Origin: a bacterium | GTDB taxonomy: Bacteria > Sysuimicrobiota > Sysuimicrobiia > Sysuimicrobiales > Humicultoraceae | Reading direction: 5' to 3' | DNA: 18,895 nucleotides | NCBI GenBank assembly: GCA_041497675.1 | Contig: JBGQGY010000075.1 | Span: 1-18,895 of the forward strand | Shown: positions 168 to 18,895 of the stretch, in pieces | Layout of the letters: every line of letters starts with the position of its first letter | How positions within the stretch are numbered: position 1 is the first letter of the stretch | Position numbers and translations under genes: made by a program | The notes under the pieces: generated by a model | What the model was told of the DNA's origin: nothing | Database searches by the model: none | What the model saw: the letters and a program-made list of their open reading frames with translations, nothing else

Positions 168-596
168 TTAGGGCCGGGCGCGCTTCAACCCTGCCACCTG
201 CAATCCGGGGACTCTCTCGAACTCTTTCAGGTTCGCAGTCACCAATCGGAACCCGTGCGCGAGCGCCGTTGCGGCGATCTGGAGGTCGTGAGCGCCGATT
301 GACGCCCCCGAACCGGCGAGCGACACGGCGAGGCGCGCATGCGTGCGCGCGCACAGCAGGTCAAACGGCACAACGGGGATTCGCGCGAGCATGGCCTCGA
401 CGAACGCCTCTCGTCGGGCCCGTTGCGCGTCCGTACGCGCTCGATGGACGCCCGCGAGCAACTCGGAGGCCGTGATGGCGGCGATCGCTACGATCTCGTC
501 CGGATCTCCGGGCAGCACATCCCCGAGCGCTGCGGCCTCGCGACTGCGGCCTCGCTCCACAGCGATCAACGCGGTTGTATCAATCAGGAGCGCCAG
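168..596 (-). CDS. vapC: PIN-domain ribonuclease toxin (VapC family)
   Basis: PIN motifs ITASELLAG, GAHDLQIAATA and LVTANLKEFERVPGL. Extending upstream of the tracked TTG (569) gives (L/M)ALLIDTTALIAVER, restoring the first catalytic Asp. The only plausible start is CTG at 596-594, with GGAGG 10 nt upstream. Start position less certain than the product. Confidence 0.88.
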   Translation of the reverse strand: MALLIDTTALIAVERGRSREAAALGDVLPGDPDEIVAIAAITASELLAGVHRARTDAQRARREAFVEAMLARIPVVPFDLLCARTHARLAVSLAGSGASIGAHDLQIAATALAHGFRLVTANLKEFERVPGLQVAGLKRARP

Positions 597-3322: not shown

Positions 3323-4813
3323 TCAGGCCGGTGCAGGTGTGTAGGGCGTGTTCAGGTCCAGCGGATAGATCGGCCGCCGCACCTTCTTGTAGGGAAACCT
3401 CGACAGGTTTGACGTGCTCAACCCCGGCGGGTCGGTGGTGATGATTGCCTTCGCCAGGGTGTCGTAGCCCGCGCGGAAGTGTGCGCTCGACTTCAAACCC
3501 ACGATGCGACACCGCGTCACGTCGATCCCGTGCAGCAGAAACGGCTCGGGGTCGAGCACCTGCGTCCGATGGCTCGCCACGACGACGTCGACGCCACCGC
3601 ACGCGAGCCGCGCCATCTTGCCCAAGTCGACCGGCGACCCCTTCCCCATGGGCGTCGAGAGCGTGAACTTCCCGTCGGTGAGGACTTTCACGTAGACCTC
3701 GAGATCGAGCGGCTCGCCGTGCATCGCATCGGTCTTGCCGCCCACACGCACGCGGATCGTCGCGCCGACGCCGGCCTTGTGCGCGGCTTCGGCCACCTCG
3801 GGATCGTAGAGCGTCCCAAAGACGCTGTCGGTGAGCCCGGCCTTCAGCATGGCGCGGAGCAAATGGGTGCCGTCGCCGGGCGCGCCGCCGCCCGGGTTGT
3901 CGCTCAGTTCGTTCACGATCACCGGCGTGCCGGATTCGGCGGCCTTCACCGCGAGCGCCACCGCCTGATCGGGTTCGGGGAACTTCGCCTGAAAGATCTC
4001 GCGCCGGTCCCAAATCTCTTCCGCAATCGCCCGCACCGCGCGCCCGGCCAGTCGGGCGTCGCGGTCGGCCAGCGCCACCACCGTCACGCCCACTTCGGGG
4101 ATGTCGGTCTGCACGAACCCGTGGATAAACGTGCAGTGCAGCATGCCGGGCTCACGTTCCCACTGGTGGCACAGGGCGTTGATCGAGCGCGCGGGCTCCA
4201 GGCGCGTCGTCGAGGCGGGGATCATCAACGGCAACACTTCGATCGCCATCACCGGGTGAGTCTTGCCGGCGAGCACGCCGACCAGGAATTCCATCGCCTC
4301 CTGCCCACGCTCGAACGCATCGGTGTGCGGGTACTCATGGACGCAAAACAGCCCGGTTGCCAGTTCCACGGTCCGCGGGGTGATGTTCCCGTGGAGGTCG
4401 AGCGTCACGGCAATGGGCATCGACGGCCCGACGACCTCACGGACCGCCGCGAGCACCGCGCTCTCGAGATCGGTGATGCCTTCGGCCACCCCCGCACCGT
4501 GCAATGCCAGACAGAGCGCGTCAAGCGGCATCGCGGCCCGGATCCGCGTCAGCAGCTCGCCGAGCATCGTGTCGTAGGCCTCCCGGGTGATCGTCCCCCA
4601 CGGTTCGGTGGTGGCCGCGAACGTGGGAATCAGCGTCACACCGAGTCGCTCGCCGGCTTCGACCATCCCCCCGAGATAGGTCCGCACGCCACGCGCGCGC
4701 TGGATCACCTCGTCGTCGCGATACCACATGCGGTCCTTGAACATCTGCAGCGTCGTAGCCGGGCAGAAGGTATTCGTCTCGTGGCTGATCTCGCCGATCG
4801 CGATGCGATACAT
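3323..4813 (-). CDS. M81 family metallopeptidase/amidohydrolase (MlrC-like)
   Basis: Motifs SHETNTF, LALHGAG, TLDLHGN, EYPHTD, DNPGGGAPGDGT and LKSSAHFRA. ATG at 4813 follows AGGAGGAGG; the tracked start at 4837 is probably too long. Confidence 0.93.
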   Translation of the reverse strand: MYRIAIGEISHETNTFCPATTLQMFKDRMWYRDDEVIQRARGVRTYLGGMVEAGERLGVTLIPTFAATTEPWGTITREAYDTMLGELLTRIRAAMPLDALCLALHGAGVAEGITDLESAVLAAVREVVGPSMPIAVTLDLHGNITPRTVELATGLFCVHEYPHTDAFERGQEAMEFLVGVLAGKTHPVMAIEVLPLMIPASTTRLEPARSINALCHQWEREPGMLHCTFIHGFVQTDIPEVGVTVVALADRDARLAGRAVRAIAEEIWDRREIFQAKFPEPDQAVALAVKAAESGTPVIVNELSDNPGGGAPGDGTHLLRAMLKAGLTDSVFGTLYDPEVAEAAHKAGVGATIRVRVGGKTDAMHGEPLDLEVYVKVLTDGKFTLSTPMGKGSPVDLGKMARLACGGVDVVVASHRTQVLDPEPFLLHGIDVTRCRIVGLKSSAHFRAGYDTLAKAIITTDPPGLSTSNLSRFPYKKVRRPIYPLDLNTPYTPAPA

Positions 4814-4826
4814 GGTGCCTCCTCCT

Positions 4827-6017
4827 CTAGCCGTCAATCGTCAGGCGCTCGAGATCCCTCGGGTAGTATGTGAGGAACTCGATACCGTCCTTGGTGACGA
4901 GGACCGTGTCCGAATGGCGAAAGCCCGCAAACCCGGGCACGTAGATGCCCGGCTCGACGCTGAAGACCATCCCCGGTTGAATCAACCGCTCGTCGCCGAT
5001 GTCGAAGAACGGCGCCTCGTGGATGCCCATCCCGAGCGCGTGACCCACGTGGTGGCGCCAGTACGGCATCAGCGCGTGCTTGTCGAAAAACGCCCGCACG
5101 GCGCGGTCGACATCGGCGCACGGCCGGCCCGGCTTGATCGCGTCGAACCCCACCTGCTGCATATCGACCATCAACTGAAACGAGCGTCGCTGCTCGGACG
5201 ATGGGGTCCCCACGATCATCGTCCGCTCGAGTTCGCTGATATAGCCACCGACGGCCGCCGATGCTCCGGTCACGAGCACGTCACCGCTGCGGATGCGAAC
5301 GTTGTTGGTCATGGCGTGCGGGATCGCCGACTGCGCGCCGATCTGGCCGCGGAATCCCGCGTGCGCGCCGGGGAAGGTCCACGAGAGCGGCCGGTAGTCG
5401 GGGCCGAGCGCGCGAATCATCGCCGACGTCGCCTCATTCGAGGCACGCGTGGCGATTTCGCTCTCGATAGCACCGCGCCTCGTATACTCCTGCAGGTAAC
5501 TGTGGGCCAGGTTGCCCCACCGCGCGCTCTCGCGGATCAGGTCGATCTCTTCCGCCGACTTGATCATGATTATGTCTTCGATCAGGTCGCGCGCCACCGT
5601 GACCGTGGTCTGCGGCAGCACCTCGCTCAAGCGCGGCCCGCGGTAGCCCATCACGCCCGGATAGCCGTCGCCGTCCACACCGAGCCGCACCCGCTCAAGG
5701 TTGAGCCCGGTCACCGTCTCGGCCAGCCGCGCCATCGGGTGCTTCTCGCCGGGATACTCTGGGTAGGACACCACCCGGTCGACCGTGGCGTAGGCCGTCG
5801 CGTGTTCTTCCTCGAGCCTGGGGACGAACAGCAGCGTCGTGTTGGTCGCGACGACCAGTGCGATCGGCCGCTCGGTGGCGATAAAGGCGAATCCGGTGAG
5901 ATAGAACACCTGCATCGGACTGAAGAGGATCATGGCGTCGAGCCCCCGCCGGGCCGCCTCGGCGCGGACCTGTGCCGTGCGCCGCAGGTGCTCGTCGCGG
6001 CTGATATACAGTCGCAT
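4827..6017 (-). CDS. M24 (pita-bread fold) Xaa-Pro peptidase/creatinase-family hydrolase
   Basis: Creatinase-N-like domain (VFYLTGF), linker IKSAEEIDLIRES, GHALGMGIHEAP and FSVEPGIYVPG. ATG at 6017 follows AAGGAGG. Several metal ligands are substituted (see findings). Confidence 0.92.
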   Translation of the reverse strand: MRLYISRDEHLRRTAQVRAEAARRGLDAMILFSPMQVFYLTGFAFIATERPIALVVATNTTLLFVPRLEEEHATAYATVDRVVSYPEYPGEKHPMARLAETVTGLNLERVRLGVDGDGYPGVMGYRGPRLSEVLPQTTVTVARDLIEDIIMIKSAEEIDLIRESARWGNLAHSYLQEYTRRGAIESEIATRASNEATSAMIRALGPDYRPLSWTFPGAHAGFRGQIGAQSAIPHAMTNNVRIRSGDVLVTGASAAVGGYISELERTMIVGTPSSEQRRSFQLMVDMQQVGFDAIKPGRPCADVDRAVRAFFDKHALMPYWRHHVGHALGMGIHEAPFFDIGDERLIQPGMVFSVEPGIYVPGFAGFRHSDTVLVTKDGIEFLTYYPRDLERLTIDG

Positions 6018-6134
6018 TGCTGCCTCCTTGACAGGTGGGATGCGACTATGGGGTTCTGGTGCAACGCGCAGGACTCCTGGCGGGTAGCGTGGAAAGGCCT
6101 GCACGCCAACGCGCTCTGTGAAAGGGGGAACGTC

Positions 6135-7448
6135 ATGTCAGACCGGAGGATCACCCGAAGACAGGCTCTCAAGGCCGCCGGCGTGCTGGTCGGCGCGAGC
6201 GCCGCCAGCCGCTTCATAGGGCCGCTCTCGATCGACCCCGCGCTCCGCTCCGCCGTGTACGCGGCCGCGCCGTCAGGCACGCCGCTGCGGATCGGCTTCC
6301 AGGTGCACCGCACGGGCATCGGCGCCACCTACGGCAAGTGGTACGAGCGCACAGGCGCGGCGGCCGTCGCAGAGATCAACGGGATGGGCGGTATCGGCGG
6401 GCGGCCGGTCGAACTCGTCGCCGAGGACGACGGCACCGATCCCAAGCGCGGCGTTGAAGTCGTCGAGAAGCTTGCCCAGCAGCACAAGGTCGACTTCATC
6501 TTCGGCACGCTGTTTTCGCACGTGGTCATCGCTGCCGCGCCGCGGGCCGGTGAACTGAAGATCCCGTACCTGGTCGTCAGCGAGGGCTATCACGTCGCGT
6601 CCGGCAAGATGAACCGGTACACCTTCCAGCCAGGTATCACCGACGTGCGCTCCCAGGTCACGGCGCTGGCGCCGTGGATCGTCAAGAACCTGGGAAAGAA
6701 GATCACGATGGTCTACCCCGACTACGCGTTTGGCTACGACCACCGCGACTTCTTCAGCAAGGCGGCGGAAAAGCAGGGTGGCAAGATCGCGGCGTTCGTG
6801 CCGATTCCGCTCGCGGAAACGTCGTTCACGAAGTTCTTCCCCAAGATCCCGAAAGACACCGACGCTCTCTACCACGTCATGGTCGGTCCTGGTGTGCTGA
6901 CGTTCGTGAAGGAACTGGGTGAGTTCTTTGGCAAGCGCAAGCCCAAGATGTTCGGTTTCATCGATTCGCTCGAAGGTGTCGACATTGGGACGCCGGGTCT
7001 CGAGTACCTCGAAGGCTCCTACCTCTGGGAGGCGTTCCCCCGATACGCGAGCGGCGACGATACGCAGTCGAAGAAGACCTACCGCCAGAAGGTGGGCGTC
7101 GATGCAAACGGCGCCAGCAAGCAAGACGCCAAAGACGTTTCCACGTACTCGCACATGTTTGGCGTCTGGGAAACGCTCTTTGTCATCAAGGACGCCGTCG
7201 AAAAAAGCGGCTACAAGAACCCCTCGGACTACAAGGGCTTCATCGAAGCGCTCGAAAAGATGGAGTCGTTCCCGGCAAGCCTTGCCCACCCGCAGGGGCC
7301 GAAACGCTTCAACGGAAAACTGCACCAGGTGTACGGGCAGCAGTTCGTTTCGCAGGTGTCCGGCAAGAAGCTCAAGGTCGTGCACACGACAAAGATCGAA
7401 GACGGCATGTACGCGCCCGAAGCAGACTACACTAAACAGCCGCTATAG
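6135..7448 (+). CDS. ABC transporter substrate-binding protein, HAAT/LivJ-like type I fold, Tat signal
   Basis: C-terminal 437 aa of tracked ORF 4728..7448. ATG at 6135 follows AAAGGGGGAA. TRRQALK twin-arginine motif; INGMGGIGGRPVELVAEDDGTDP and DYAFG are typical of this family; lies upstream of Liv-type permeases. Confidence 0.93.
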   Translation: MSDRRITRRQALKAAGVLVGASAASRFIGPLSIDPALRSAVYAAAPSGTPLRIGFQVHRTGIGATYGKWYERTGAAAVAEINGMGGIGGRPVELVAEDDGTDPKRGVEVVEKLAQQHKVDFIFGTLFSHVVIAAAPRAGELKIPYLVVSEGYHVASGKMNRYTFQPGITDVRSQVTALAPWIVKNLGKKITMVYPDYAFGYDHRDFFSKAAEKQGGKIAAFVPIPLAETSFTKFFPKIPKDTDALYHVMVGPGVLTFVKELGEFFGKRKPKMFGFIDSLEGVDIGTPGLEYLEGSYLWEAFPRYASGDDTQSKKTYRQKVGVDANGASKQDAKDVSTYSHMFGVWETLFVIKDAVEKSGYKNPSDYKGFIEALEKMESFPASLAHPQGPKRFNGKLHQVYGQQFVSQVSGKKLKVVHTTKIEDGMYAPEADYTKQPL

Positions 7449-7533
7449 AATCGCCGAGACCAGCCGTGGCGCCGGCCCGTAGCCACCCGTACGCGGGGCG
7501 GGTCGGCGCTCGGCGTTTCGACCCTTCATCACG

Positions 7534-8403
7534 ATGAGCCTCGATATCGGGCAACTCATTCTTGCACTGCTCGAGGGCCTGACGTCGGGGTCGATCATCG
7601 CGCTCACCGCCCTCGGCCTCTCGCTGGTCTTCGGGGTCATGCGCGTCGTCAACGTTGCGCATGGCGAATTCTATATGATCGGCGCGGTAACGGCCTGGTA
7701 CGTGTCGACGGCGACGGGCAGCTTCGCGGCCGCCCTGGTCGTGGCGCCGCTCGTCGCCGGCGGCATCGCCCTGGCAGCCGAGCGTCTGGTGCTGCGGCCG
7801 CTCGAGTACAAACCCGAAGCCACGATCGTCGCCACGATCGGCATGCTCTACATCATCCAGCAGGCGGTCTTGAGCATCTACGGACCCGAAGCGCGCGCGG
7901 TCGTGGCGCCGGTGGCCTTTACGATCGAGTTCCCATGGTTCGGTTACTCGGGGTACCGACTTGTCGTCGTGGGTCTGGCGGCGTTGCTGTTGTTCGCCGT
8001 CTGGTTGCTGATCACGAAGACGACACTTGGGCTCTACATGCGCGCCACCCAGCAAGATCGCGAGATCGCCCAGGCCTTCGGCGTGCCCGTCCATCGCATC
8101 TACGCCGCGTCGTTCGCGCTTGGCGCGGTCCTCGCCGCCGTCGCCGGTGTGTTGATCGTGCCGGTGCAACAAGCGCACTACCTGATGGGCCTCGACGCGC
8201 TGCTGCTGTCGTTCATGGCCGTGATCATCGGAGGGCTCGGTAGTCTGCGGGGGACGATCGCCGCCGCGTTCTTGATCGGATTGATCGACGGCCTGGTCTC
8301 GGTGTTCTTCTCACCACCGCTCGCCCGAATCGTCGCCTCGTTGCTCGTGGCGCTGGTACTCGTCTTTCGGACCGGCGGGCTCTTGGGGGAGCAGACAGCG
8401 TGA
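7534..8403 (+). CDS. livH: HAAT-family ABC permease, LivH-like
   Basis: ALGLSLVFGVMRVVNVAHGEFYMIGA, TTLGLYMRATQQDREIAQAFGV and VIIGGLGSLRG; hydrophobic throughout. Symbol denotes family, not a proven substrate. Confidence 0.93.
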   Translation: MSLDIGQLILALLEGLTSGSIIALTALGLSLVFGVMRVVNVAHGEFYMIGAVTAWYVSTATGSFAAALVVAPLVAGGIALAAERLVLRPLEYKPEATIVATIGMLYIIQQAVLSIYGPEARAVVAPVAFTIEFPWFGYSGYRLVVVGLAALLLFAVWLLITKTTLGLYMRATQQDREIAQAFGVPVHRIYAASFALGAVLAAVAGVLIVPVQQAHYLMGLDALLLSFMAVIIGGLGSLRGTIAAAFLIGLIDGLVSVFFSPPLARIVASLLVALVLVFRTGGLLGEQTA

Positions 8404-9352
8404 CACACGCACGGCACGTGGCGATCCTGCACCTTGCCGTCGCAGCCGGCCTGTTTCTCTTGCAGTTTGTGCTACCGCCATTCCACCATGGCATGGTCGC
8501 GCGCGTCATGGTCCTGGCCGCCTTCGCGATCGGGTACAACGTCTTACTCGGCTACACCGGTCTGATGAGCCTGGGGCATGCGATGTTTTTCGCCGCCGGG
8601 ATGTACGGCACCGGGCTGACCGTCTACTACCTGCGCTTTGGCGCGGGCGAGGCCTTTCTCGCCGGCGTGATCGCCGGTGTCGTGCTTGCGGCGATCGTTG
8701 GGGCGATCACGCTGCGTACAAGCGGCGTCTCATTCCTGATCGTCACCATGATGTTCGCCCAGGTGGTCTTCCTCTCGATCCTCTACTTCAACCGCATCAC
8801 CGGCGGCGACCAGGGATTCAACCTGAGCGGACGCCTGGCCCCGTTTGCGCTCGCGGGCTTCGTCGCGCCATACTCCGACCCGCTCGTGAAGTACAACCTC
8901 GCCTTCGCGGTGTTCGTGATGTGCCTCGCCGTAAACCTGTGGCTCATCCGCTCACCGATCGGGCGTGTGCTGATCGCCATCCGTGAGAATGACGATCGCA
9001 CGCGCATGCTCGGCTATGACACGTTTCGCTACAAATGGTTCGGGCTCGTCGTCTCGGGCGCGCTGTCCGGTGCGGCCGGGTCGATGTACACACTGCTGTT
9101 CTCCTATGTCGGCGCCACGTTTGGATCGATCCTCTACTCAATCTACCCACTCCTCTGGACGCTGCTCGGCGGGGTGGGCACGGCGCTGGGGCCGCTCGTC
9201 GGCACGGGCGCGATGACCTACCTGATTGACAAGTCCAGCGAGTACACGCAAGGCTACCTGATCGTCGTCGGATTGGCGCTCGTGTTGATCATCCTGAAGT
9301 TTCCCACAGGGATCATGGGCGGCGTGCGGTCCAGGTGGTGGAAGTGGCTGCC

Positions 9353-9356
<4 letters not shown>
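8400..9356 (+). CDS. livM: HAAT-family ABC permease, LivM-like
   Basis: NVLLGYTGLMSLGHAMFF, ITGGDQG, SPIGRVLIAIREND and LLGGVGTALGPLVG. GTG start overlaps the previous stop (GTGA). Confidence 0.93.
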
Positions 9357-10095
<739 letters not shown>

Positions 10096-10099
<4 letters not shown>

Positions 10100-10824
10100 C
10101 GCTCACGGTTGATCGCATCGCGTGCGCCTATGGCGAGGCCCGCGTCCTGCACGACGTGTCGCTCGCGCTGGCGCCGGGGCACGTGCTCTCCTTGTTGGGA
10201 CGCAACGGCGCGGGCAAGACAACGATGTTGCGCGCCATCATGGGTCTGCTCCGCCCGCGGGCCGGAACCATCCGCGTGGATGATCAGGACCTCACCCGGC
10301 TGCCCGCACACGAGATCCCGCGCCTCGGCATCGCCTATGTCCCGCAGGGGCGCGGCCTCTTCCCGTTCTTGACCGTGGAAGAGAACCTCCGGATGGGACT
10401 GCTGGTGAAAGGCGCCGGGCCCGAGACGCTCGAGTCGGTCTTCGAACTCTTCCCGGTGCTCAAGGAACGCCTGCGCCAGCGCGCGGGCACGCTCTCCGGC
10501 GGCGAGCAACAGATGGTCGCGACCGCCCGGGCGCTGTGCACGAATCCGACGTATCTGTTGATGGACGAACCCACCGAAGGCCTGATGCCGATCCTGGTGC
10601 AGAGGTTGATGGACACGGTCATGACGCTCAAGACACGGGGCGTCGGGGTGTTGCTCGTCGAACAGCGGATCGACGCCGCCCTGCGCGTAGCCGATCAGGT
10701 TATCATCCTGGAGACGGGTCACGTCCGGTACGCGGGGCCGCCCGCAGGATTGGCGCAGGACGCCGACACGCTGCTCCGGTACCTCGGGGTCAGACACACG
10801 GACGAAGGGAGACACCGACTTTAG
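10096..10824 (+). CDS. livF: HAAT-family ABC ATPase, LivF-like
   Basis: Walker A GRNGAGKTT, YVPQGRGLF, LSGGEQQM, MDEPTEGL and LLVEQ. ATGA overlap with livG. Confidence 0.94.
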
Positions 10825-10843: not shown

Positions 10844-11290
10844 ATGACCGCAGACCGCAAGACTCGTGACGCCATCGACAGCCGCGCGGTCGAAGACCTC
10901 GACGGCATTACCGTCATCCGCGGCGGCGGGAGCGCTCGCGCCTGGAACAACATCCAGTACATGCAGGGGATGTCGGCCAAGAACGTCGGCTCGACGCACC
11001 TTTCGATCAACGTCGCCACTGTACCGCCCGGCGGGATCGCCTACGCGCACATCCACGAGGGGTTCGAGGTGATGCTGTTCATCGTCCAGGGGCGCGTGAA
11101 ACACACCTACGGCGAAAATCTGGCGGAGTCGGTCATCAACGAGGCCGGTGATTTCATCTACATCAAACCGGGCGTGCCGCACGAGGTGTTCAACATCGGC
11201 GACGAGCCGCTGGTCGCGTTCGTCGCGCGGTCGGCGGCAGACGAGTGGGACCGGATCGTCGACTATCCTTCACAACACAGACCGGCCTAG
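10844..11290 (+). CDS. Cupin-domain protein (RmlC-like) with metal-binding motif
   Basis: Motif 1 PPGGIAYAHIHEGFEVMLFIVQG and motif 2 GDFIYIKPGVPH give the His-His-Glu-His set. RBS AAGGGAG. Confidence 0.9.
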   Translation: MTADRKTRDAIDSRAVEDLDGITVIRGGGSARAWNNIQYMQGMSAKNVGSTHLSINVATVPPGGIAYAHIHEGFEVMLFIVQGRVKHTYGENLAESVINEAGDFIYIKPGVPHEVFNIGDEPLVAFVARSAADEWDRIVDYPSQHRPA

Positions 11291-11308: not shown

Positions 11309-11593
11309 CTACCTCTCGACGGCGATACCTCTCCAGAACGCGACATGATTCTTGATGTGGGCCGCCGCCTCCTTTGGGGTGGGATAGTACCAGGCACCGT
11401 CCTTGTTCACTTTCCCATCTACGACGACATCGAAGTAACTGGCGACGCCTTTCCACGGGCACATCGTTTGTGTGACGCTGGGCTTGAAGAACTCGGCCCG
11501 GATCGACCCGGGCGGGAAGTACACGTTCCCTTCAACCTCCTCGAACACGTCGCTTTCGGCGAGCACGGTACCGTTCCATCGTGCCTTGGGCAT
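11309..11593 (-). CDS. DUF427 family protein
   Basis: MPKARWNGTVLAESD, VEGNVYFPP, TMCPWKGVASYF, AWYYPTPK and IKNHVAFW are the DUF427 pattern. ATG at 11593 follows AGGAGG. Confidence 0.92.
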   Translation of the reverse strand: MPKARWNGTVLAESDVFEEVEGNVYFPPGSIRAEFFKPSVTQTMCPWKGVASYFDVVVDGKVNKDGAWYYPTPKEAAAHIKNHVAFWRGIAVER

Positions 11594-11618
11594 GCGTCCT
11601 CCTATCGTGGTAGTCTCC

Positions 11619-13946
11619 TCAGCGTCTGAGCCACTCGACCACGCGCGGCGGGCTGATGGGCAGCGTATCCACGGGGTGACCCAACGCGTCACCGATGGCA
11701 TTCGCCACGCACGCCGGCGCGCCGATGGTAGCCGATTCGCCCATGCCTTTGAACCCGTGCACGGTGTTCGGCGATGGCGTCTCCAGGTGCACGACCGTCA
11801 CCCGGGGCGCCTCCATAGCTGTCGGGATCAGGTAGTCCATGAGGGTCGCGCTGAGCAATTGTCCCGACTCATCGTAGACCACTTCTTCCATTAACGCCTC
11901 GCCGATGCCTTGCGTCAGACCGCCGTGTGTCTGACCGTCGACGATCATCGGGTTCACCAGCGGCCCGCAGTCTCCGGCAACGACATACTTGAGGATGGCG
12001 ATATGACCCGTCTCGCGGTCGACCTCGACCATGGCCAAGTGCGCTCCGTTGCCAAACGCGGCCGGTGGGGGATCGTAGGTGCTCGACGCCGCGAGTCCCG
12101 GCTCGAGTCCCGCGGGCAGCCCCGAGGCACCCGGTGCGTGGGCCGCGCGCGCGACGTCGTGCCAGGTCACGCTGCGCCTCGGCGATCCTTTGACGAAGAA
12201 CCGGCCGCCGGCCAGCGTGACGTCCTCTGCCGACGCTTCGAGCAGGTGCGCGGCGATCTCGACGGCGCGTGTCCTGACTTTCGCCGCGGCCTGGACGAGC
12301 GCGCCGCCTCCCGACACCACCGCCCGGCTGGCGAACGTGCCGGTGCCGGTCGGGACGGTATCGGTATCGAGCGTCGCGACGGCGACGTCGGCCGGCTCGA
12401 GCCCGAGTTCCCCGGCCGCAAGTTGCGCAAAGACGGTCTGCAGCCCCTGACCCTGCGACGGGCAGGATACACCGACCTCGACGCGACCTGACGCATCGAC
12501 GGTCACCGTCGCGCTGTCGTAACCGCGCACCTCCACCATACCGCGCCGCTGAAACGTCTTCGACCCCATGCCCGTGTACTCGACGAATGTCGAGACCCCG
12601 ATCCCCACCAGCCGTCCCTGCCTCCGTAGCCGCGCCTGCTCCTGCCGCGCTTCCTCGTACGCGAACGCGTCGGCGGCGGCCCGCAGCGTCACGCCGTACC
12701 GCCCGCTGTCGTAGACGAGCCCGGTCGCTGCGGCGTACGGAAACTCGTCGGCGCCGATGAAATTCCGGTGGCGCACCTCGGCGGGATCGAGACCGGTGGC
12801 GGTTGCGAGCCGGTCCATCAGGCACTCCATCACGAACACGCCGACCGTCATCCCGACGCCACGATAGGCGCCGGCCGGACACTTGTTGGTGGCCATGGCC
12901 AGCGCGGTGTACGCATACGCCGGTACGCGGTAGGGTCCGGGCATGATCTGTACGGTGCCCATCGGCTCGAGCGCCGAGGTCGTCGGGTACGCGGAGTACG
13001 CGCCGCTGTCACACGCGACTTCGGCCCGCAGCGCAAGGATGTGACCGTCGCGGTCGGCGGCGATCGCGGCGTCGACCACCTGTTCTCGCGCCTGCGTCAT
13101 CGTCTCCAGATTCTCACGGCGATCCTCGATCCATTTCACAGGACGTTTGAGCGCGCGTGTCACGGCACACGCGACAACGTCCTCAGGATACAGGTGCATC
13201 TTCGGCCCAAACCCGCCGCCGACATCGGGAACGATCACACGCACCACACGTTCCGGCAGCCCGAGAAAGCGCGCGACACCCGACTTCAGACCGTGCGGCG
13301 TCTGGGTCGACGCCCACACGTTGAGCCGGCCGTCGGGCTGCCATGCTGCGACGATCCCGCGGCCTTCCATCGGCGCGCCGCAGAGACGCTGGTGCCGGAG
13401 CGTCGCGCGCACGGTGATGGCCGCGGCGGCGAAGGCGGCGTTGACGTCGCCCTGTCGATGATCATGGCGGAAGTACTGGTTGCCTGGCACCGCGTCGTGG
13501 ACACACGCGGCTCCGGCCCGTCGCGCCGCTTCGATCGACGCGATGACCGGCAGTGCGGCGTACTCGACCTCGACCAGATCAACCGCGTCTTCGGCCACGT
13601 ACCGATCGCGCGCCACGACGACGGCGACGGATTCGCCGACGAATCGCACCCGATCACGCGCGAGCGGCGGCCAGGCGGTCATGGCGTAGTTCTCGCCGGT
13701 GAAGTCCGCGACAATCGGCTGCATCACAAGATCGGCGGCCGTAAAGACCGCCTCGACGCCCGGAAGCGTCCTCGCCCGCGACGCGTCGATTCGCTCGAGC
13801 GCGGCGCTTGCATGCGGGGAGCGCACGAATGCCAGGTGCAGCATGCCCGGCAGCGTCAGATCGGGTACATACATTCCCCGACCCGTCAGAAGCGGCCGAT
13901 CCTCTTCTCGCCTGACCGACCGACCGATGTGCGGATTGGCCGTCAT
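11619..13946 (-). CDS. Xanthine dehydrogenase family molybdopterin-binding large subunit (active-site loop AYRGVG)
   Basis: IGRSVRREED, VRSPHA, STQTPH, DVGGGFGPK, AYRGVG, SQGQG, GTFASR, NPMIVDGQTHGG and KGMGES (catalytic Glu). Lacks the AYxCSFR loop of form I CO dehydrogenase. Confidence 0.95.
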   Translation of the reverse strand: MTANPHIGRSVRREEDRPLLTGRGMYVPDLTLPGMLHLAFVRSPHASAALERIDASRARTLPGVEAVFTAADLVMQPIVADFTGENYAMTAWPPLARDRVRFVGESVAVVVARDRYVAEDAVDLVEVEYAALPVIASIEAARRAGAACVHDAVPGNQYFRHDHRQGDVNAAFAAAAITVRATLRHQRLCGAPMEGRGIVAAWQPDGRLNVWASTQTPHGLKSGVARFLGLPERVVRVIVPDVGGGFGPKMHLYPEDVVACAVTRALKRPVKWIEDRRENLETMTQAREQVVDAAIAADRDGHILALRAEVACDSGAYSAYPTTSALEPMGTVQIMPGPYRVPAYAYTALAMATNKCPAGAYRGVGMTVGVFVMECLMDRLATATGLDPAEVRHRNFIGADEFPYAAATGLVYDSGRYGVTLRAAADAFAYEEARQEQARLRRQGRLVGIGVSTFVEYTGMGSKTFQRRGMVEVRGYDSATVTVDASGRVEVGVSCPSQGQGLQTVFAQLAAGELGLEPADVAVATLDTDTVPTGTGTFASRAVVSGGGALVQAAAKVRTRAVEIAAHLLEASAEDVTLAGGRFFVKGSPRRSVTWHDVARAAHAPGASGLPAGLEPGLAASSTYDPPPAAFGNGAHLAMVEVDRETGHIAILKYVVAGDCGPLVNPMIVDGQTHGGLTQGIGEALMEEVVYDESGQLLSATLMDYLIPTAMEAPRVTVVHLETPSPNTVHGFKGMGESATIGAPACVANAIGDALGHPVDTLPISPPRVVEWLRR

Positions 13947-16228
13947 CGGCTGCGCGCCGCCTGCCTCACCAGTGAGAGCAGGCGATCAGGAGACAGCGGC
14001 AGGTCGGTGATCTCGACCCCGAGGGGTCGCAGAGCATCCGCCACCGCGTTGCCAATCGCCGCGCCAGCCGCGGCGGTCCCGCCTTCGCCCGCACCCTTGA
14101 CGCCTAGCGGATTCAGCGGCGTTGGTGTCTCTTCAAGAATTCTCACCGTGACGTTCGCGGGCATCTCGAGAAACGTCGGCAGCAGGTAGTCCATGAACGT
14201 CACAGAGAGGGGCTGCCCGTCGTCGGCATAGGCCAGTTCTTCCAGGATGGCGCCGCCGATACCCTGCGCCAGCCCGCCCACCAGTTGACCTTCCACCAAC
14301 TTCGGGTTCACGGCCCGGCCAACATCATACGCGATGGCGTAGTCAAGGATGCTGATCGCGCCTGTCGCCGCGTCGATCTCGACCACCGCGGCATGCGCTC
14401 CGTACGGATACGTCATTTTAGTCGCCTCGTACCGATGCGACGCTTCCAGCAGACGATCGGGCGTCACGAGTTCACGAAAGGCCGCGCTCCGAGTCGGCGC
14501 TCCATTTACCCACACCCGACCGTCCTGGACCATGAGATCGTCACGCGCTGCTTCGAGGCGCGCCGCCCCTCGGTCGAGCAGCATCCCCTTCACCTTGCGC
14601 GCCGCGAACAGCACCGCGCTACCGCCCACAACCGTCACGCGGCTGCCCCATGCGCCGATGCCGGCTGCGACCGTCGTCGTGTCCCCGTGCTTCACCACGA
14701 CATCGTCGTATGCCGCGCCGAGTTCCTCCGCGCAGATCTGCGCCAGCACCGTCTCCATGCCCTGACCGACCGACGCGCCGCCCGAATAGACGGTGACGCC
14801 GCCGTCGGCGTCGACGGCCACCCGCGCCGTTTCCCACGGACCGGGTCCGGCCTTCTCGACGAAACACGCGAGACCGATCCCCAGAAAGCGCCCTTCGCCG
14901 GCTGCACGCTGCTGTTCGCGGCGCCGCCGTTCATAGTCGATCGCCGCGAGCGCCGCTTCCAGCGTCGAGACGTAGATACCGGTGTCATAGACGACCGGCT
15001 CTCCCAGGGCAAAGGTACCGATCGTGCACGGCATTGCCGTCGGTGGAATGAAGTTTCGCCGCCGGACGTCCGCCGGATCCAGACCCGTGGCTTCGGCCAG
15101 CAGATCCATGACGCGCTCGCGGACAAAATTGGACTCGAACCGCCCGGGCGACCGATAGGTCCCGGTGGGCGTCTTGTTCGTCAAGACGCACCGCACCTCA
15201 GCGTGGTAGTTCGGAATCGCATACGGCCCCGGCAGCATGGCGATCGTCAGTTCCGGCACCGACACGCCGTGCGTGCGCAGATATGCCCCCATATCAACGG
15301 CGATCCGATCAGTCAGCGCCACGATCCGGCCGTCGCGCGTCGCGCCGAGATCGACCTCATGCACCTGCTGGCGCGAGTGGTTCGCGGCCACCAGATGCTC
15401 GCGGCGGTCCTCGATCCACTTCACCGGCCGGCCGAGACGCACGGCCGCCCACGGGATCAGGAAATCCTCCGGATAGAACTCGCCGCGCACGCCAAAGCCC
15501 CCGCCGACGTCGGGCTCGACGAAGCGGATGCGGTCTTGGGGCCAGCCGAGAAAGTTCGCCAGCACCCCGCGGTTGAAGTGCGGCACCTTCGTCGGTCCCC
15601 ACACCGTCAGCAGGCCGGAAGCGTCATCGTACGAGGCAACGACCCCACGGGTCTCCATGGGCACGCCGGAGTGGCGCTGAATCGTGAAGCGTTGTCTGAT
15701 GCGCACGTCCGCGGCGGCAAGGGCGCGCTCGGGATCTCCCCTCCGCGCTTCGAGCCGATCAGCGAGATTGCTGCCCGCGGGCTCGTGGAGCAGCGGGGCG
15801 TCAACCGCAAGAGCCCGGTCGGTCGACACAATGACAGGCAAAGCCAAGTACTCAACATGTATCAGGTCGGCGGCGTCTTCCGCAGCGTAGCGGTTCGCGG
15901 CAACGACCAGCACGACGGGCTCACCGACGTATCGCACGCGATCACGTGCCAGCGCGGGCTGGAGAAACGGCGCGAGCGCAGGTTTTGCGCCAAGCCGGAT
16001 GGGGATCGTCCCGATGCCGCCCAGGTCGGCGGCGGTCGCGACCAGCGCGACACCAGGCGAACCCAATGCTACCGCGGCATCGATGCGTGCTATCTGCGCG
16101 TGCCCGTGGGGGCTGCGAAGGAGCACGGCGTGCAGGATTCCCGGCAGCCGCACGTCATCGACATAGCACCCCCGGCCCGCCAGCAGCTTGGGGTCTTCCT
16201 TCCGCTTGACCGACGCGCCGATGATCAT
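13943..16228 (-). CDS. Xanthine dehydrogenase family molybdopterin-binding large subunit (active-site loop TYRSPGR)
   Basis: IGASVKRKED, LRSPHGHA, DVGGGFGVRGE, GTYRSPGRFE, SVGQG, GAWGSR, NPKLVEGQLVGG and KGAGEG. Stop overlaps the next start (ATGA). Confidence 0.95.
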   Translation of the reverse strand: MIIGASVKRKEDPKLLAGRGCYVDDVRLPGILHAVLLRSPHGHAQIARIDAAVALGSPGVALVATAADLGGIGTIPIRLGAKPALAPFLQPALARDRVRYVGEPVVLVVAANRYAAEDAADLIHVEYLALPVIVSTDRALAVDAPLLHEPAGSNLADRLEARRGDPERALAAADVRIRQRFTIQRHSGVPMETRGVVASYDDASGLLTVWGPTKVPHFNRGVLANFLGWPQDRIRFVEPDVGGGFGVRGEFYPEDFLIPWAAVRLGRPVKWIEDRREHLVAANHSRQQVHEVDLGATRDGRIVALTDRIAVDMGAYLRTHGVSVPELTIAMLPGPYAIPNYHAEVRCVLTNKTPTGTYRSPGRFESNFVRERVMDLLAEATGLDPADVRRRNFIPPTAMPCTIGTFALGEPVVYDTGIYVSTLEAALAAIDYERRRREQQRAAGEGRFLGIGLACFVEKAGPGPWETARVAVDADGGVTVYSGGASVGQGMETVLAQICAEELGAAYDDVVVKHGDTTTVAAGIGAWGSRVTVVGGSAVLFAARKVKGMLLDRGAARLEAARDDLMVQDGRVWVNGAPTRSAAFRELVTPDRLLEASHRYEATKMTYPYGAHAAVVEIDAATGAISILDYAIAYDVGRAVNPKLVEGQLVGGLAQGIGGAILEELAYADDGQPLSVTFMDYLLPTFLEMPANVTVRILEETPTPLNPLGVKGAGEGGTAAAGAAIGNAVADALRPLGVEITDLPLSPDRLLSLVRQAARSR

Positions 16229-16233
16229 GCGGC

Positions 16234-17031
16234 TCAGACATCCATGATCGCTTTGCGTTGACCGCCGTCAAGCGTAATCCACGCGCCGTTCATATAGCTG
16301 GCGCGGGGAGACGACACGAACACGACCACCGAGGCGACTTCCTCCGGCGTACAAATGCGGCCGAGCGGCAGGCTCTTGACCGCCTGTCTACTCGCGTCGT
16401 CGAAGGACATGCCTTTGTCCCTCGCATACGCGCGCACGAGTCCATTCCAGCGCTCGGTCGCGACCGGCCCCGGGTTGACGGCGTTCACAAGGATCCCCTG
16501 CGACCCGTACTGCTCGGCGAGCGCGGCCGTCACCGCGAGATCGGCGGCGTTCGCCGCGCTCGCGGTCAGTTCCCAGTACGCGGGTTTGATCCCGTCGTTG
16601 CCGACCACGTTGACGATGCGACCGGCGCCGCGCTTGAGCAGATGCGGGACCGCGGCCTTTGCGCCGCGTACGTAACCCATGAACTTCAACTGCAGGCTGA
16701 GCTGCCACTCCTCTTCAGTGAGGTTCAGCAGCAGACCACCCGGCGAGGCGCCCGCGCAGTTCACCAGGACGTCCAGACCGCCGTAGTGCGCTGCCGCCTC
16801 GTCAACGCAGCGCTTGGCATCTTCCCACTTCATCATGTCGCCGGCAACGGTGAAGACCGGCCGGCCGGTCTCGGCGCGGATCTCCTCCGCGGTCTTTTTG
16901 AGCCCATCCTCCTGGCGAGCGCAGAGCGCCAGGACCGCGCCCTCCTTTGCGAACTCGAAGGCGCAGGCGCGGCCGATGCCCTTCGATCCCCCCGTAATCA
17001 ACACGACCATGTTCCGCAGGCCGAGGTCCAT
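16234..17031 (-). CDS. Short-chain dehydrogenase/reductase with atypical active site
   Basis: TGGSKGIG, LVNCAG, VNAVNPG, PLGR and DGG motifs; ASAAN occupies the usual YxxxK position. Confidence 0.92.
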   Translation of the reverse strand: MDLGLRNMVVLITGGSKGIGRACAFEFAKEGAVLALCARQEDGLKKTAEEIRAETGRPVFTVAGDMMKWEDAKRCVDEAAAHYGGLDVLVNCAGASPGGLLLNLTEEEWQLSLQLKFMGYVRGAKAAVPHLLKRGAGRIVNVVGNDGIKPAYWELTASAANAADLAVTAALAEQYGSQGILVNAVNPGPVATERWNGLVRAYARDKGMSFDDASRQAVKSLPLGRICTPEEVASVVVFVSSPRASYMNGAWITLDGGQRKAIMDV

Positions 17032-17034
17032 TGC

Positions 17035-17874
17035 CTATCCTCCCCTCACCAGATCGTCGTACAAGTCGGGCCGGCGATCGCGCACGAGATCCATCTCGGC
17101 CGTGGCGCGCTGCGCATCGACACCGGCCACGTCGATATCGGCGACCAGGACTTCCTCGTCGGTGTGCGACGCCGGTCCCGCAACGGCCATCCCCGATGCC
17201 GCAAAGATCGCACTGCACCCTAGCGCCCGCACGCGTCCATCGGGTCCGGCGCGGTCGGCACAGGCCACCCCCATGCGGCTCCCATAGGCATGGCCCGCCG
17301 CCAGATAGTTCGCCCCGCACCACCCTCGAGCATCGTAGGGCTCGGGCTTCCCCCGATCGGTCCACGTCGTGGGCACGCACAAGACCTGCGCGCCGTGCAG
17401 CAACAAGATCCGCACCGCTTCCGCGAAGCGCAAGTCGTAGCAGATCAGCACGCCGACGCGTCCCACCGGAGTGTCCCAGATCGGAAAGCCGTTATCCCCC
17501 GGCGTGAAGATGGCGCGCTCGTGATCGTACAGGTGAGCCTTTCGATACACGCCGAGCACCCCGGTGGGTCCGATCATCGCCGCGCTGTTGTACAGACGAT
17601 CGCCCGCGCTCTCGGGCCACCCGGCCACGATGTGCATCCCGGTCTCTCCGGCGAGCGCCGTCCATGCGGTCACACTCGGACCATCCAACGGCTCCGCGTG
17701 ACGCTCGACATCGGCGCGAACCTGAAAATCATACGATATCGTACTAAGTTCCGGCAGCACGCTCAGCGCCGCGCCCCGCGAGGCAGCATCACGCAGCAGA
17801 CGAAGCGATCGATCCCGCATGCGTGCCGGGGCCCTCCAGGGCGCCGCCATCTGGACGACGGCGACCCGACTCAT
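17035..17874 (-). CDS. Carbon-nitrogen hydrolase (nitrilase superfamily, probably an amidase)
   Basis: Glu-Lys-Cys triad in VLPEL, YRKAHL and ICYDLRF; also LYNSA and C-terminal DRRPDLY. Confidence 0.94.
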   Translation of the reverse strand: MSRVAVVQMAAPWRAPARMRDRSLRLLRDAASRGAALSVLPELSTISYDFQVRADVERHAEPLDGPSVTAWTALAGETGMHIVAGWPESAGDRLYNSAAMIGPTGVLGVYRKAHLYDHERAIFTPGDNGFPIWDTPVGRVGVLICYDLRFAEAVRILLLHGAQVLCVPTTWTDRGKPEPYDARGWCGANYLAAGHAYGSRMGVACADRAGPDGRVRALGCSAIFAASGMAVAGPASHTDEEVLVADIDVAGVDAQRATAEMDLVRDRRPDLYDDLVRGG

Positions 17875-18284
17875 CGCGATCTGCGGGGTGGTTGGACGAG
17901 CTCCACCATGTACCCTTCAACCGTTTCCTGCGCCAGGAACGCGATCATCGTATTGGCGGCGCCGGGGCGAGCGTGTTCATCCTGCAAGGCCACTCCACGG
18001 GACTTGAGGGTGTCGAGGGCCGCCTCGATGTCATCGACCTGAAAGGCAATGTGCTGGAGCCCCTCGCCGCGCTCGCGCAACCAGTCGACGCCGAATCCCT
18101 TCTCGCTCAGCGGCTGGACGAGTTCGAGCAGGGTGCCCCCGATCGGGATGAACCCGATCAGCGCCTGCCCGGGCCCGTAGTCTTCCCACGTGGTGACCTC
18201 GAGACCGAACGCGGTGCGAAACCGCTCGGCCGCCGCCCGTGCGTCGCGCACGAGGATACCGATGTGGTGAACGCCTCGGATCAC
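17871..18284 (-). CDS. VOC superfamily protein, methylmalonyl-CoA epimerase-like
   Basis: HHIGILV, LLELVQP, GEGLQHIAFQVDDI and MVELVQ give the His/Glu/His/Glu metal set. GTG start follows GGAGGAG; ATGA overlap with the nitrilase gene. Confidence 0.88.
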   Translation of the reverse strand: MIRGVHHIGILVRDARAAAERFRTAFGLEVTTWEDYGPGQALIGFIPIGGTLLELVQPLSEKGFGVDWLRERGEGLQHIAFQVDDIEAALDTLKSRGVALQDEHARPGAANTMIAFLAQETVEGYMVELVQPPRRSR

Positions 18285-18285
18285 G

Positions 18286-18895
18286 TTACTCCTCCACCCA
18301 GGCGGCGACGCGCGCCGGGCCGCCGTTGCCGCCCTTTACCGGGACGGGCATGGCGATCAGCGTGAACTGCCGCCGGCCGATCTTGTCCAGATTCACCAAA
18401 TTTTCGATCAGACAGACGTTGGCTCCAAGCGTGATCACGTGGACGGGATACTTGGGCTGACCCGCGGGTTTTGGCGGTCCTCCATCGACCGCAAAATCCA
18501 CGGCCAGCGCGCGCGCGCCGGCATCGACGAGCCACTGCGCGGCCTCATTCGACAGGTACGGGTTGTCCTTGTAGAACGAGGCATCGGCCCAGTGTTCCTG
18601 GGCCCACCCACTCCAGAGCACAACGCGCATTCCGCGCAACCCCAACGCGTCCCCGGCCGCAGCCTGCAGCGTCTCAGCCGTGAACGGCCACCCGGGCTTC
18701 GCCGCCGCCCGCAGATCGAGCAGCACCGCGGGGCCGTTGAGCCACTCGAGCGGTACCTGCTCCATCGTCAGGCCCGCTTTGATGAAGTGGAACGGCGCGT
18801 CGATATGGGTCCCGGTGTGGATGCTGAAGGTCGCGTACGCTGTGGAGTACCCTTGGAGTTCGTGGTGGTTGATCGGCACGTAGAAGATCCGAGGG
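18286..18895 (-). CDS. Cyclase family metal-dependent hydrolase (kynurenine formamidase/isatin hydrolase-like), 5' truncated
   Basis: HTGTHIDAPFH matches HxGTHxDxPxH; also LIENLVNL and GGPARVAA. The frame stays open (PRIFY...) to the window edge, so the tracked GTG at 18879 is probably internal. Confidence 0.93.
   Translation of the reverse strand, partial: PRIFYVPINHHELQGYSTAYATFSIHTGTHIDAPFHFIKAGLTMEQVPLEWLNGPAVLLDLRAAAKPGWPFTAETLQAAAGDALGLRGMRVVLWSGWAQEHWADASFYKDNPYLSNEAAQWLVDAGARALAVDFAVDGGPPKPAGQPKYPVHVITLGANVCLIENLVNLDKIGRRQFTLIAMPVPVKGGNGGPARVAAWVEE

Follow-up and report, generated by a model that had tools for sequence, protein, structure and literature searches.

The 18,895-nt stretch of DNA analysed here (the window) is the entire contig C75 of a 3.97-Mb assembly in 272 contigs with 66% G+C (GCA_041497675.1, phylum Sysuimicrobiota), and it carries a real, conserved and uncharacterised operon of an uncultured bacterium. 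Seven minus-strand genes, called from open reading frames (ORFs) and Pfam matches, follow one another with intergenic gaps of 1, -4, 3, 5, -4 and 25 nt, the very genes and spacing described in an original prediction that had been made from the sequence alone. In order of transcription they encode a cyclase-family hydrolase, a VOC/glyoxalase-fold protein, a nitrilase-superfamily carbon-nitrogen (CN) hydrolase, an atypical short-chain dehydrogenase/reductase (SDR), two molybdopterin-binding large subunits of molybdenum (Mo) hydroxylases, here called Mo1 and Mo2, and a small DUF427 protein (Table 1). We put about even chances on this operon serving the catabolism of a pyridine-type nitrogen ring, for example a pyridine carboxylate or a hydroxypyridine, which would be hydroxylated on both sides of the nitrogen, opened hydrolytically and deamidated; our confidence in any single named substrate is lower than our confidence in this pathway logic. 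The prediction had proposed an operon for the breakdown of an N-heterocycle that belongs to no characterised pathway. The second half of that proposal agrees with our own result, as we found no characterised cluster with a gene-for-gene match; the first half is partly supported, and it had missed both that the operon contains no gene for an iron-sulphur (Fe-S) or flavin adenine dinucleotide (FAD) subunit and that relatives possess a fuller form of the cluster, with an M29-like gene, an ATP-binding cassette (ABC) importer and coxM-coxS.

The cyclase gene is truncated at the end of C75, and the sequence beyond position 18895, whose retrieval the prediction had proposed as a check, completes it. 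C75 and the reverse-complemented contig C82 overlap exactly, the final 81 nt of the one being the initial 81 nt of the other, and the cyclase frame runs on into C82 as far as an ATG 59 nt past the window, which gives a full protein of 222 aa, the length of most homologues. Upstream of the cyclase on C82 there is a divergent gene for a family-5 (peptide-type) binding protein, followed by DUF58, DUF4129, O-methyltransferase and M24 genes; the same series precedes the cyclase in a related genome (G020), where an M29-like gene separates the M24 gene from the cyclase. We regard the join between the two contigs as sound, because the exact 81-nt overlap, the in-frame cyclase start and the DUF58-DUF4129-methyltransferase-M24 synteny common to C82 and G020 all point the same way. 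It follows from the join that the operon begins with the cyclase and consists of seven genes, none of which encodes an Fe-S (CoxS-type) or FAD (CoxM-type) subunit. An alternative, longer DUF427 ORF, extending to 11701, would overlap Mo2. Scans of the sequence for promoters and terminators returned 2 promoter-like sites (shuffled mean 0.8) and 4 terminator-like sites (shuffled mean 3.0), numbers near those expected from shuffled sequence, and no site in either set looked meaningful. At the other end of C75, nt 1-128 recur exactly within contig C135, at about nt 8418 of 9288, as a repeat or an assembly branch.

We looked for the operon genes in 94 genomes of the phylum, a sample that includes the window's own genome (G000) and one unpublished genome carrying a Mo1 orthologue (G024). 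Mo1 orthologues with 63-95% identity occur in 18 of the 94, the next best match lying at 50%, and CN-hydrolase orthologues with 63-79% identity occur in 10. In nine of these ten genomes (G000, G021, G020, G001-3, G010, G080 and G086) no more than 6 kb separates the block of cyclase, VOC, CN-hydrolase and SDR genes from Mo large-subunit genes; in the tenth, G023, the contigs are too fragmented to judge. The window's own gene order, split over two contigs, is found in G021, which belongs to the same genus. The other seven genomes place an M29-like gene in front of the four-gene block and differ in what follows it: Mo1, Mo2, coxM and coxS in G020; five Liv-type ABC genes, Mo1 and Mo2 in G001-G003; ABC genes and one Mo2-type gene in G010; and, in two members of another family (G080 and G086), ABC genes, coxM, coxS and two large subunits, one with 50% identity to Mo2 and one with 45-46% identity to Mo1. 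Since other genera of the phylum have the genes in the same order, chance alone does not account for the arrangement, and this bears out the expectation that the genes of so tight an operon would occur together elsewhere. Furthermore, the pair of large subunits linked to the block in G080 and G086 is not entirely the same, which favours a functional over an accidental link between the two sets of genes.

Along with the block there are usually the M29-like gene and an ABC importer of the Liv type; three genomes (G020, G080 and G086) have coxM-coxS as well. The window's genus has neither an M29-like orthologue nor coxM-coxS in cis, and carries DUF427 in their place; since DUF427 follows Mo2 only in this genus (G021 and G022), its inclusion in the gene set holds for the genus and fails for the rest of the phylum. 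The fullest form of the cluster lies on contig C39 of G086 (L162, about 2.6-16.8 kb), where 14 co-oriented genes run in the order M29-like, cyclase, VOC, CN hydrolase, SDR, five ABC genes, coxM, coxS and two large subunits. The M29-like protein that heads the cluster in the relatives (L141, L146 and L161-L163) is 345-350 aa long, and its only PDB match is NicX, a 2,5-dihydroxypyridine dioxygenase (E 1e-11). We refrained from a dioxygenase assignment, as two ligand positions that are His and Ser in NicX are Glu and His in this protein, a combination that we take to be the peptidase-type set. An M29-like gene also occurs elsewhere in the window's genome, on contig C12 (about 27.7-36.4 kb), next to one Fer2_2 gene and two large-subunit genes and without an FAD subunit; it has 32-34% identity to the M29-like gene of G020, with one TAA within the match.

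Part of the evidence that points toward a ring with a pyridine-type nitrogen comes from the two large subunits. Both Mo1 and Mo2 contain the hammerhead domain and the two molybdopterin-binding domains (PF01315, PF02738 and PF20256) above the Pfam cut-offs, and an alignment of 10 sequences that includes KdhL and NdhL of the pAO1 nicotine pathway shows the catalytic Glu, the GGGFG loop and the Arg of the YR loop to be invariant (E715, G242-G246 and R359 in Mo1 numbering). The best PDB match of Mo1 is 7dqx, the 6-hydroxypseudooxynicotine dehydrogenase KdhL (E 7e-170), and that of Mo2 is 1t3q, quinoline 2-oxidoreductase (E 4e-192); as relatives of both subunits, xanthine dehydrogenases score far below the enzymes of pyridine and quinoline rings. 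We also built a tree of 29 large subunits, among them 12 other paralogues from this genome, in which Mo1 groups with KdhL and with the 'second' subunit of alphaproteobacterial pairs, and Mo2 groups with NdhL and with the 'first' subunit of the same pairs, each with a support of 99 in the SH-like approximate likelihood-ratio test (SH-aLRT), the only support measure calculated. Two further features agree with this division: a YRGVG loop and an insertion of some 13 residues are common to Mo2 and NdhL, and a YR(S/A)PGR loop is common to Mo1 and KdhL. The PDB matches and the tree are thus consistent with the proposal that both subunits belong to Mo hydroxylases acting beside a ring nitrogen. A different member of the family, form I aerobic carbon monoxide dehydrogenase, was tried and rejected. 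The active-site loop of that enzyme carries a copper-binding Cys, and the corresponding loops GTYRSPGR (Mo1) and GAYRGVGM (Mo2) have none; the equivalog model TIGR02416 gives 498 bits for Mo1 and 620 for Mo2, against a cut-off of 991.

None of the seven operon proteins reaches an NCBIfam equivalog cut-off, and the hydrolases are accordingly described by family. The cyclase scores 97 bits with PF04199 (cut-off 23), and its translation contains the metal motif HTGTHIDAPFH (H-x-G-T-H-x-D-x-P-x-H), which is conserved in the alignment of homologues. Its orthologues in G020 and G002 have 80-86% identity, and homologues with 50-56% identity are found in the cultured Brevibacillus massiliensis, Aneurinibacillus and Alicyclobacillus dauci; in a search of plasmids no match exceeded 33% identity among the best 25 of 250, and all 250 were below 60%. 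We rejected an arylformamidase (TIGR03035, 51.8 bits against a cut-off of 223) and also, by comparison with PKC of pAO1, a trihydroxypyridine ring hydrolase of the PKC/HpoH kind, since the cyclase has only 26-28% identity to PKC over about 210 residues, which places it in the same family and a different subfamily. The CN hydrolase scores 148 bits with its Pfam model, has 3ivz as its best PDB match and contains the motifs LPEL, YRKAHL and LICYD, which, read by eye, appear to retain the sites of the Glu-Lys-Cys triad. It falls far under the cut-off of every named NCBIfam amidase and, with 25% identity, is not an orthologue of the pAO1 omega-amidase NIT. The VOC protein belongs to the VOC fold and matches epimerases and glyoxalases in the PDB, but it scores 85.4 bits with the methylmalonyl-CoA epimerase model TIGR03081, whose cut-off is 114.95.

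The SDR deserved the label atypical that it had been given. It retains the glycine-rich NAD(P)-binding motif, but when it is aligned to sorbose reductase the Ser, Tyr and Lys positions of a classical SDR read Gly, Thr and Asn, and the same positions are Gly, Thr/Pro/Gly and Asn in all 12 orthologues that were aligned, which come from two phyla. All 12 have an invariant GNDG-K-P-x-Y-W-E stretch, which is also present in PDB entry 6jh7, and there is a conserved A-A-N-A-A motif; judged from the alignment, the protein is a member of a conserved subfamily. Literature searches on the atypical SDR and on 6jh7 gave nothing useful. The DUF427 protein, which may have a redox role, has a single Cys, within a C-P-W-K-G motif, and matches 3djm in the PDB; an atlas search with it returned DUF427 clusters only.

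A literature search for clusters of Mo hydroxylase, cyclase and CN hydrolase found no matching bacterial pathway, and the known systems resemble the operon in part. In the pAO1 nicotine pathway of Paenarthrobacter nicotinovorans (ndhLMS, kdhLMS, PKC, NIT) two Mo hydroxylases act on both carbons that flank the pyridine nitrogen. After kdhL, pAO1 has a Dabb gene, a cyclase-family gene, the flavin monooxygenase gene dhpH, an SRPBCC gene and a CN-hydrolase gene, and upstream of kdhL it has a cupin and a C-C hydrolase gene. According to PMC6214936 and PMC9304392, expression of the pAO1 cyclase depends on nicotine, and the reaction proposed for the enzyme is the opening of 2,3,6-trihydroxypyridine to 2-oxoglutaramate, a compound that NIT, the amidase, has been shown to deamidate to 2-oxoglutarate. 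The same sources name HpoH and HpoI of Rhodococcus rhodochrous PY11 as the counterparts of this cyclase and amidase: in the 2-hydroxypyridine pathway of that strain the cyclase-family HpoH opens trihydroxypyridine, after which the 2-ketoglutaramate amidase HpoI acts. The combination of a cyclase-type hydrolase and a nitrilase-type amidase, both of which figured in the prediction, has a published parallel in these two systems.

The differences from pAO1 are nonetheless large. Common to both are only the families of the KdhL-like subunit, the PF04199 cyclase, the CN hydrolase and the cupin, with identities of 41% (KdhL), 37% (Mo1 to NdhL), 26-28% (cyclase) and 25% (amidase). The C-C hydrolase DHPONH, the O2-dependent flavin monooxygenase DHPH, the SRPBCC and Dabb proteins and kdhMS of pAO1 have no counterpart in the window; the window, unlike pAO1, has the atypical SDR, the VOC protein and DUF427, and has no Fe-S or FAD genes of its own. 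The PY11 pathway reportedly begins with a multicomponent oxygenase and not with Mo hydroxylases. The hxn nicotinate pathway of Aspergillus nidulans is alike in its logic of a Mo hydroxylase, ring reduction, an SDR step, cyclic-imide hydrolysis and an amidase, as PMC9304392 describes it. However, two flavin monooxygenases take part in the hxn pathway, along with an old-yellow-enzyme reductase and an SDR of the classical kind, which has the Tyr-Lys site; the imidase is a polysaccharide-deacetylase-type enzyme, and the amidase is from another family. Two successive Mo hydroxylases are said to produce 2,6-dihydroxylated pyridine carboxylates from nicotinate in Bacillus niacini and from isonicotinate in Mycobacterium sp. 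INA1, and we know of no genes that have been assigned to either two-step pathway. Among the listed matches of a literature search on the intermediates of these pathways there was, by title or abstract start, no bacterial-gene paper; the Bacillus nicotinate route is mentioned in PMC9304392.

Several observations weigh against a pyridine-type substrate, and they are set out here together with the explanations that they would favour. The tree of large subunits is a quick IQ-TREE calculation with few reference enzymes, KdhL and NdhL being the sole characterised ones. The SDR lacks the classical catalytic triad. Because the cyclase is only 26-28% and the CN hydrolase only 25% identical to their pAO1 counterparts, the likeness to that pathway is one of logic and family, not of orthology. 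Furthermore, judged by score, nitrilase models and N-carbamoyl amidase models fit the CN hydrolase about equally well, so that a ureido intermediate of a pyrimidine or purine would fit as well, and relatives carry Bmp/PnrA-type (nucleoside-type) transporters and genes for isochorismatase and amidohydrolase beside Mo1 orthologues. The last two points could suggest a nucleobase-type substrate with more than one ring nitrogen (a pyrimidine, purine or pteridine): Mo enzymes would oxidise it, the cyclase would open a ureide ring, the CN hydrolase would be an N-carbamoyl amidase and, in the relatives, the M29-like hydrolase would cut a further C-N bond. This explanation is unlikely, though we rate it as the most probable of the alternatives. 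Specifically, Bmp/PnrA-type binding-protein ABC systems adjoin the Mo1 orthologues of G002, G005, G071 and a Xanthobacteraceae locus, carbamoylases are among the PDB matches of the CN hydrolase, whose score with the N-carbamoylputrescine amidase model is 155 bits, and the fuller cluster carries three C-N hydrolases. However, for both large subunits the closest enzymes of known function act on pyridine or quinoline rings and not on purines, with xanthine dehydrogenases scoring far lower, the importer in the window is Liv-type and not Bmp-type, and the window's genus has lost the M29-like gene and kept the rest.

Conservation outside the phylum is the second point of doubt. We examined 80 genome loci with relatives of Mo1 (42-53% identity) and found coxS in 58, coxM in 49, the atypical SDR, at an identity of at least 45%, in 21, and a second, Mo2-type large subunit in 19, typically in the layout coxM-L-coxS-L, where L is a large subunit; the SDR and the second subunit occur together in 11. 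A cyclase of a second, different subfamily is present in 6 loci and a CN hydrolase in 1, and the full seven-gene set in none of the 80. A metagenome scan with the cyclase alignment gave the same picture, with cyclase, VOC and CN hydrolase together in 0/80 loci and the seven-gene set in 0/80. One could therefore imagine two unrelated modules that merely stand side by side, a lactam or amide hydrolase block made up of the first four genes and a CoxL-like pair with another role, for example in the oxidation of aldehydes or small molecules. Mo1-Mo2 pairs occur without the block in G005, G077, G078 and G079, often beside another cyclase subfamily, isochorismatase, a helix-turn-helix/cupin regulator or a Bmp-type ABC system; in G001-3, G010 and G086 (probably also G080) the block is separated from the Mo genes by an ABC transporter; and the block adjoins Mo1 relatives in 0/80 of the outside loci. 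We nevertheless consider such a coincidence quite improbable, as nine of the ten genomes with the block have it beside Mo large-subunit genes, even where, in G080 and G086, the pair includes one different paralogue, as the block and the Mo genes are just 5 nt apart in the window, and as its SDR accompanies relatives of Mo1 in other phyla (21/80 loci).

A third difficulty for the pyridine-type reading is that the operon has no Fe-S or FAD subunit. Neither the window nor the adjoining end of C82 has a gene for a [2Fe-2S] or FAD subunit, a complete holoenzyme of large, FAD and Fe-S subunits is not encoded in the operon, and the two large subunits therefore cannot function from the operon genes alone. 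The genome as a whole has 15 large-subunit matches, and outside the operon it has 6 Fer2_2 and 7 FAD_binding_5 matches. The best matches to the coxM and coxS that lie in cis in G020 have 59% and 62% identity, respectively, and lie inside a large-FAD-Fe-S cluster of their own on contig C15, which also counts against the reading. The ratio of large to Fe-S subunits is 15:6 in the window's genome and 11:6, 13:7, 14:9, 7:6 and 6:3 in five relatives (G001, G002, G020, G005 and G086), and many of the large subunits in these genomes have no partner genes nearby. As every one of the six genomes counted has more large subunits than Fe-S subunits, sharing of subunits looks normal in the phylum, and the simplest reading of the counts would be that in this genus Mo1 and Mo2 borrow Fe-S and FAD subunits from other loci. 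That the large subunits are instead non-working relics, left behind in this genus by the loss of their own Fe-S and FAD subunits so that the hydrolase genes alone are functional, is very unlikely: coxM-coxS are in cis in G020, G005 and G043 and absent here, and the genome has no close orthologue of either, but Mo1 and Mo2 are intact and full-length, keep the invariant catalytic residues and are 77-95% identical to the genes of two sister genomes, and the excess of large subunits is general (6/6).

For a pyridine-type substrate, we infer both the compound and the order of the steps as follows. The neighbouring Liv-type ABC system would import the compound, and Mo2 (nicotine-dehydrogenase-like) and Mo1 (ketone-dehydrogenase-like) would each put a water-derived hydroxyl on a carbon beside the ring nitrogen. 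The product would be a 2,6-dihydroxypyridine, which amounts to a ring of the cyclic-imide type. In the weakest step of the scheme, the atypical SDR and the metal-binding VOC protein might adjust this ring by reduction, tautomerisation or epimerisation. The cyclase-family metal hydrolase would then open the ring at a C-N bond, and the nitrilase-family hydrolase would finally release the remaining amide nitrogen as ammonia.

A more specific version of this scheme, which is speculative and in our view improbable, is that Mo1 and Mo2 form one mixed enzyme. The core would be a dimer of two unlike large subunits, both relying on one type of Fe-S subunit and one type of FAD subunit, and such a tandem hydroxylase could deliver a 2,6-dihydroxylated pyridine from one complex to an oxygenase-free hydrolytic ring opening, with the SDR, as a new subfamily without Tyr and Lys, carrying out a reduction or tautomerisation. 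A comparable gene content is known from Sphingomonas melonis TY, where ndrB1B2B3B4 comprises one Fe-S, one FAD-type and two large-subunit-like genes and is needed for nicotine degradation, according to PMC5239795; by content it is comparable to the coxM-L-coxS-L layout of the 19 loci outside the phylum. It differs from the window in having Fe-S and FAD genes, and, in the same study, its activity was never reconstituted.

The remaining genes of the window bear on uptake and on oxygen. The Liv-type importer is likely the uptake system for the pathway substrate, as far as its gene neighbourhood indicates: orthologues of its binding protein (71-89% identity) adjoin Mo1 orthologues in G021, G005 and G071. 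The nearest solved relatives of this binding protein are 4ey3, 4evs and 4f06, which we take to be binders of benzoate-type aromatic acids. The cupin between the importer and the operon is retained beside the operon in G021 and G022 of the same genus (91% and 97% identity) and in G009 (77%). The prediction had suggested a route possibly without O2, on the ground that the window holds no flavin monooxygenase or Rieske oxygenase; neither family is found among the window ORFs that were scanned, but the metal-binding cupin could be an oxygenase, which bears on that idea.

Elsewhere the window carries one PIN-domain gene, a gene pair for a histidine kinase and a response regulator, and one gene each of the M81/MlrC and M24 families. 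The PIN-domain gene (168-569, minus strand) has a 120-aa ORF without a Pfam match just upstream (584-946), and the two may form a toxin-antitoxin pair. The M81/MlrC-type and M24 creatinase/prolidase-like genes (3323-6104, minus strand) overlap by 11 nt and are divergent from the ABC importer; the layout of M24 gene and importer is retained in G021.

Table 1. Genes of the operon and its neighbourhood, with positions in the window.
Feature	Position (nt)	Strand	Basis and remarks
Cyclase, PF04199, first operon gene	18286 to beyond 18895	-	Pfam E 1.3e-27; truncated at contig end
VOC/glyoxalase-fold protein, single-module, methylmalonyl-CoA-epimerase-like, 137 aa	17871-18284	-	Pfam Glyoxalase_4 E 3e-19
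Nitrilase-superfamily CN hydrolase, 279 aa, candidate amidase or decarbamoylase	17035-17874	-	Pfam CN_hydrolase E 3e-43
Atypical SDR, 265 aa	16234-17031	-	Pfam and alignment of 12 sequences
Mo1, xanthine dehydrogenase (XDH)/CoxL-family molybdopterin-binding large subunit, KdhL-type, 761 aa	13943-16228	-	Three Pfam domains
Mo2, second full-length large subunit, NdhL/Qor-type, 775 aa	11619-13946	-	Pfam
DUF427 (PF04248) small protein, 94 aa, last operon gene	11309-11593	-	Pfam E 6e-32
Metal-binding cupin, single-domain, canonical	10844-11290	+	Pfam Cupin_2; convergent with DUF427
Liv-type ABC importer	6135-10824	+	Pfam; precedes cupin
Importer binding protein, Tat (twin-arginine) signal	6135-7448	+	Start codon and signal
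Importer permeases	7534-8403 and 8400-9356	+	Pfam
Importer ATPases	9335-10099 and 10096-10824	+	Pfam

The cluster raises the question of how full-length large subunits without Fe-S and FAD partners of their own are served, and what role an SDR without the catalytic triad plays beside Mo hydroxylases in several phyla. It also bears on pathways with two hydroxylases that were described decades ago and whose genes, as far as we know, have not been assigned. Pyridine rings, which occur in vitamin B3, alkaloids and many pollutants and drugs, are usually opened by oxygenases. If the proposed pathway is true, a route relying solely on hydrolases and on hydroxyls taken from water would operate where there is little oxygen.

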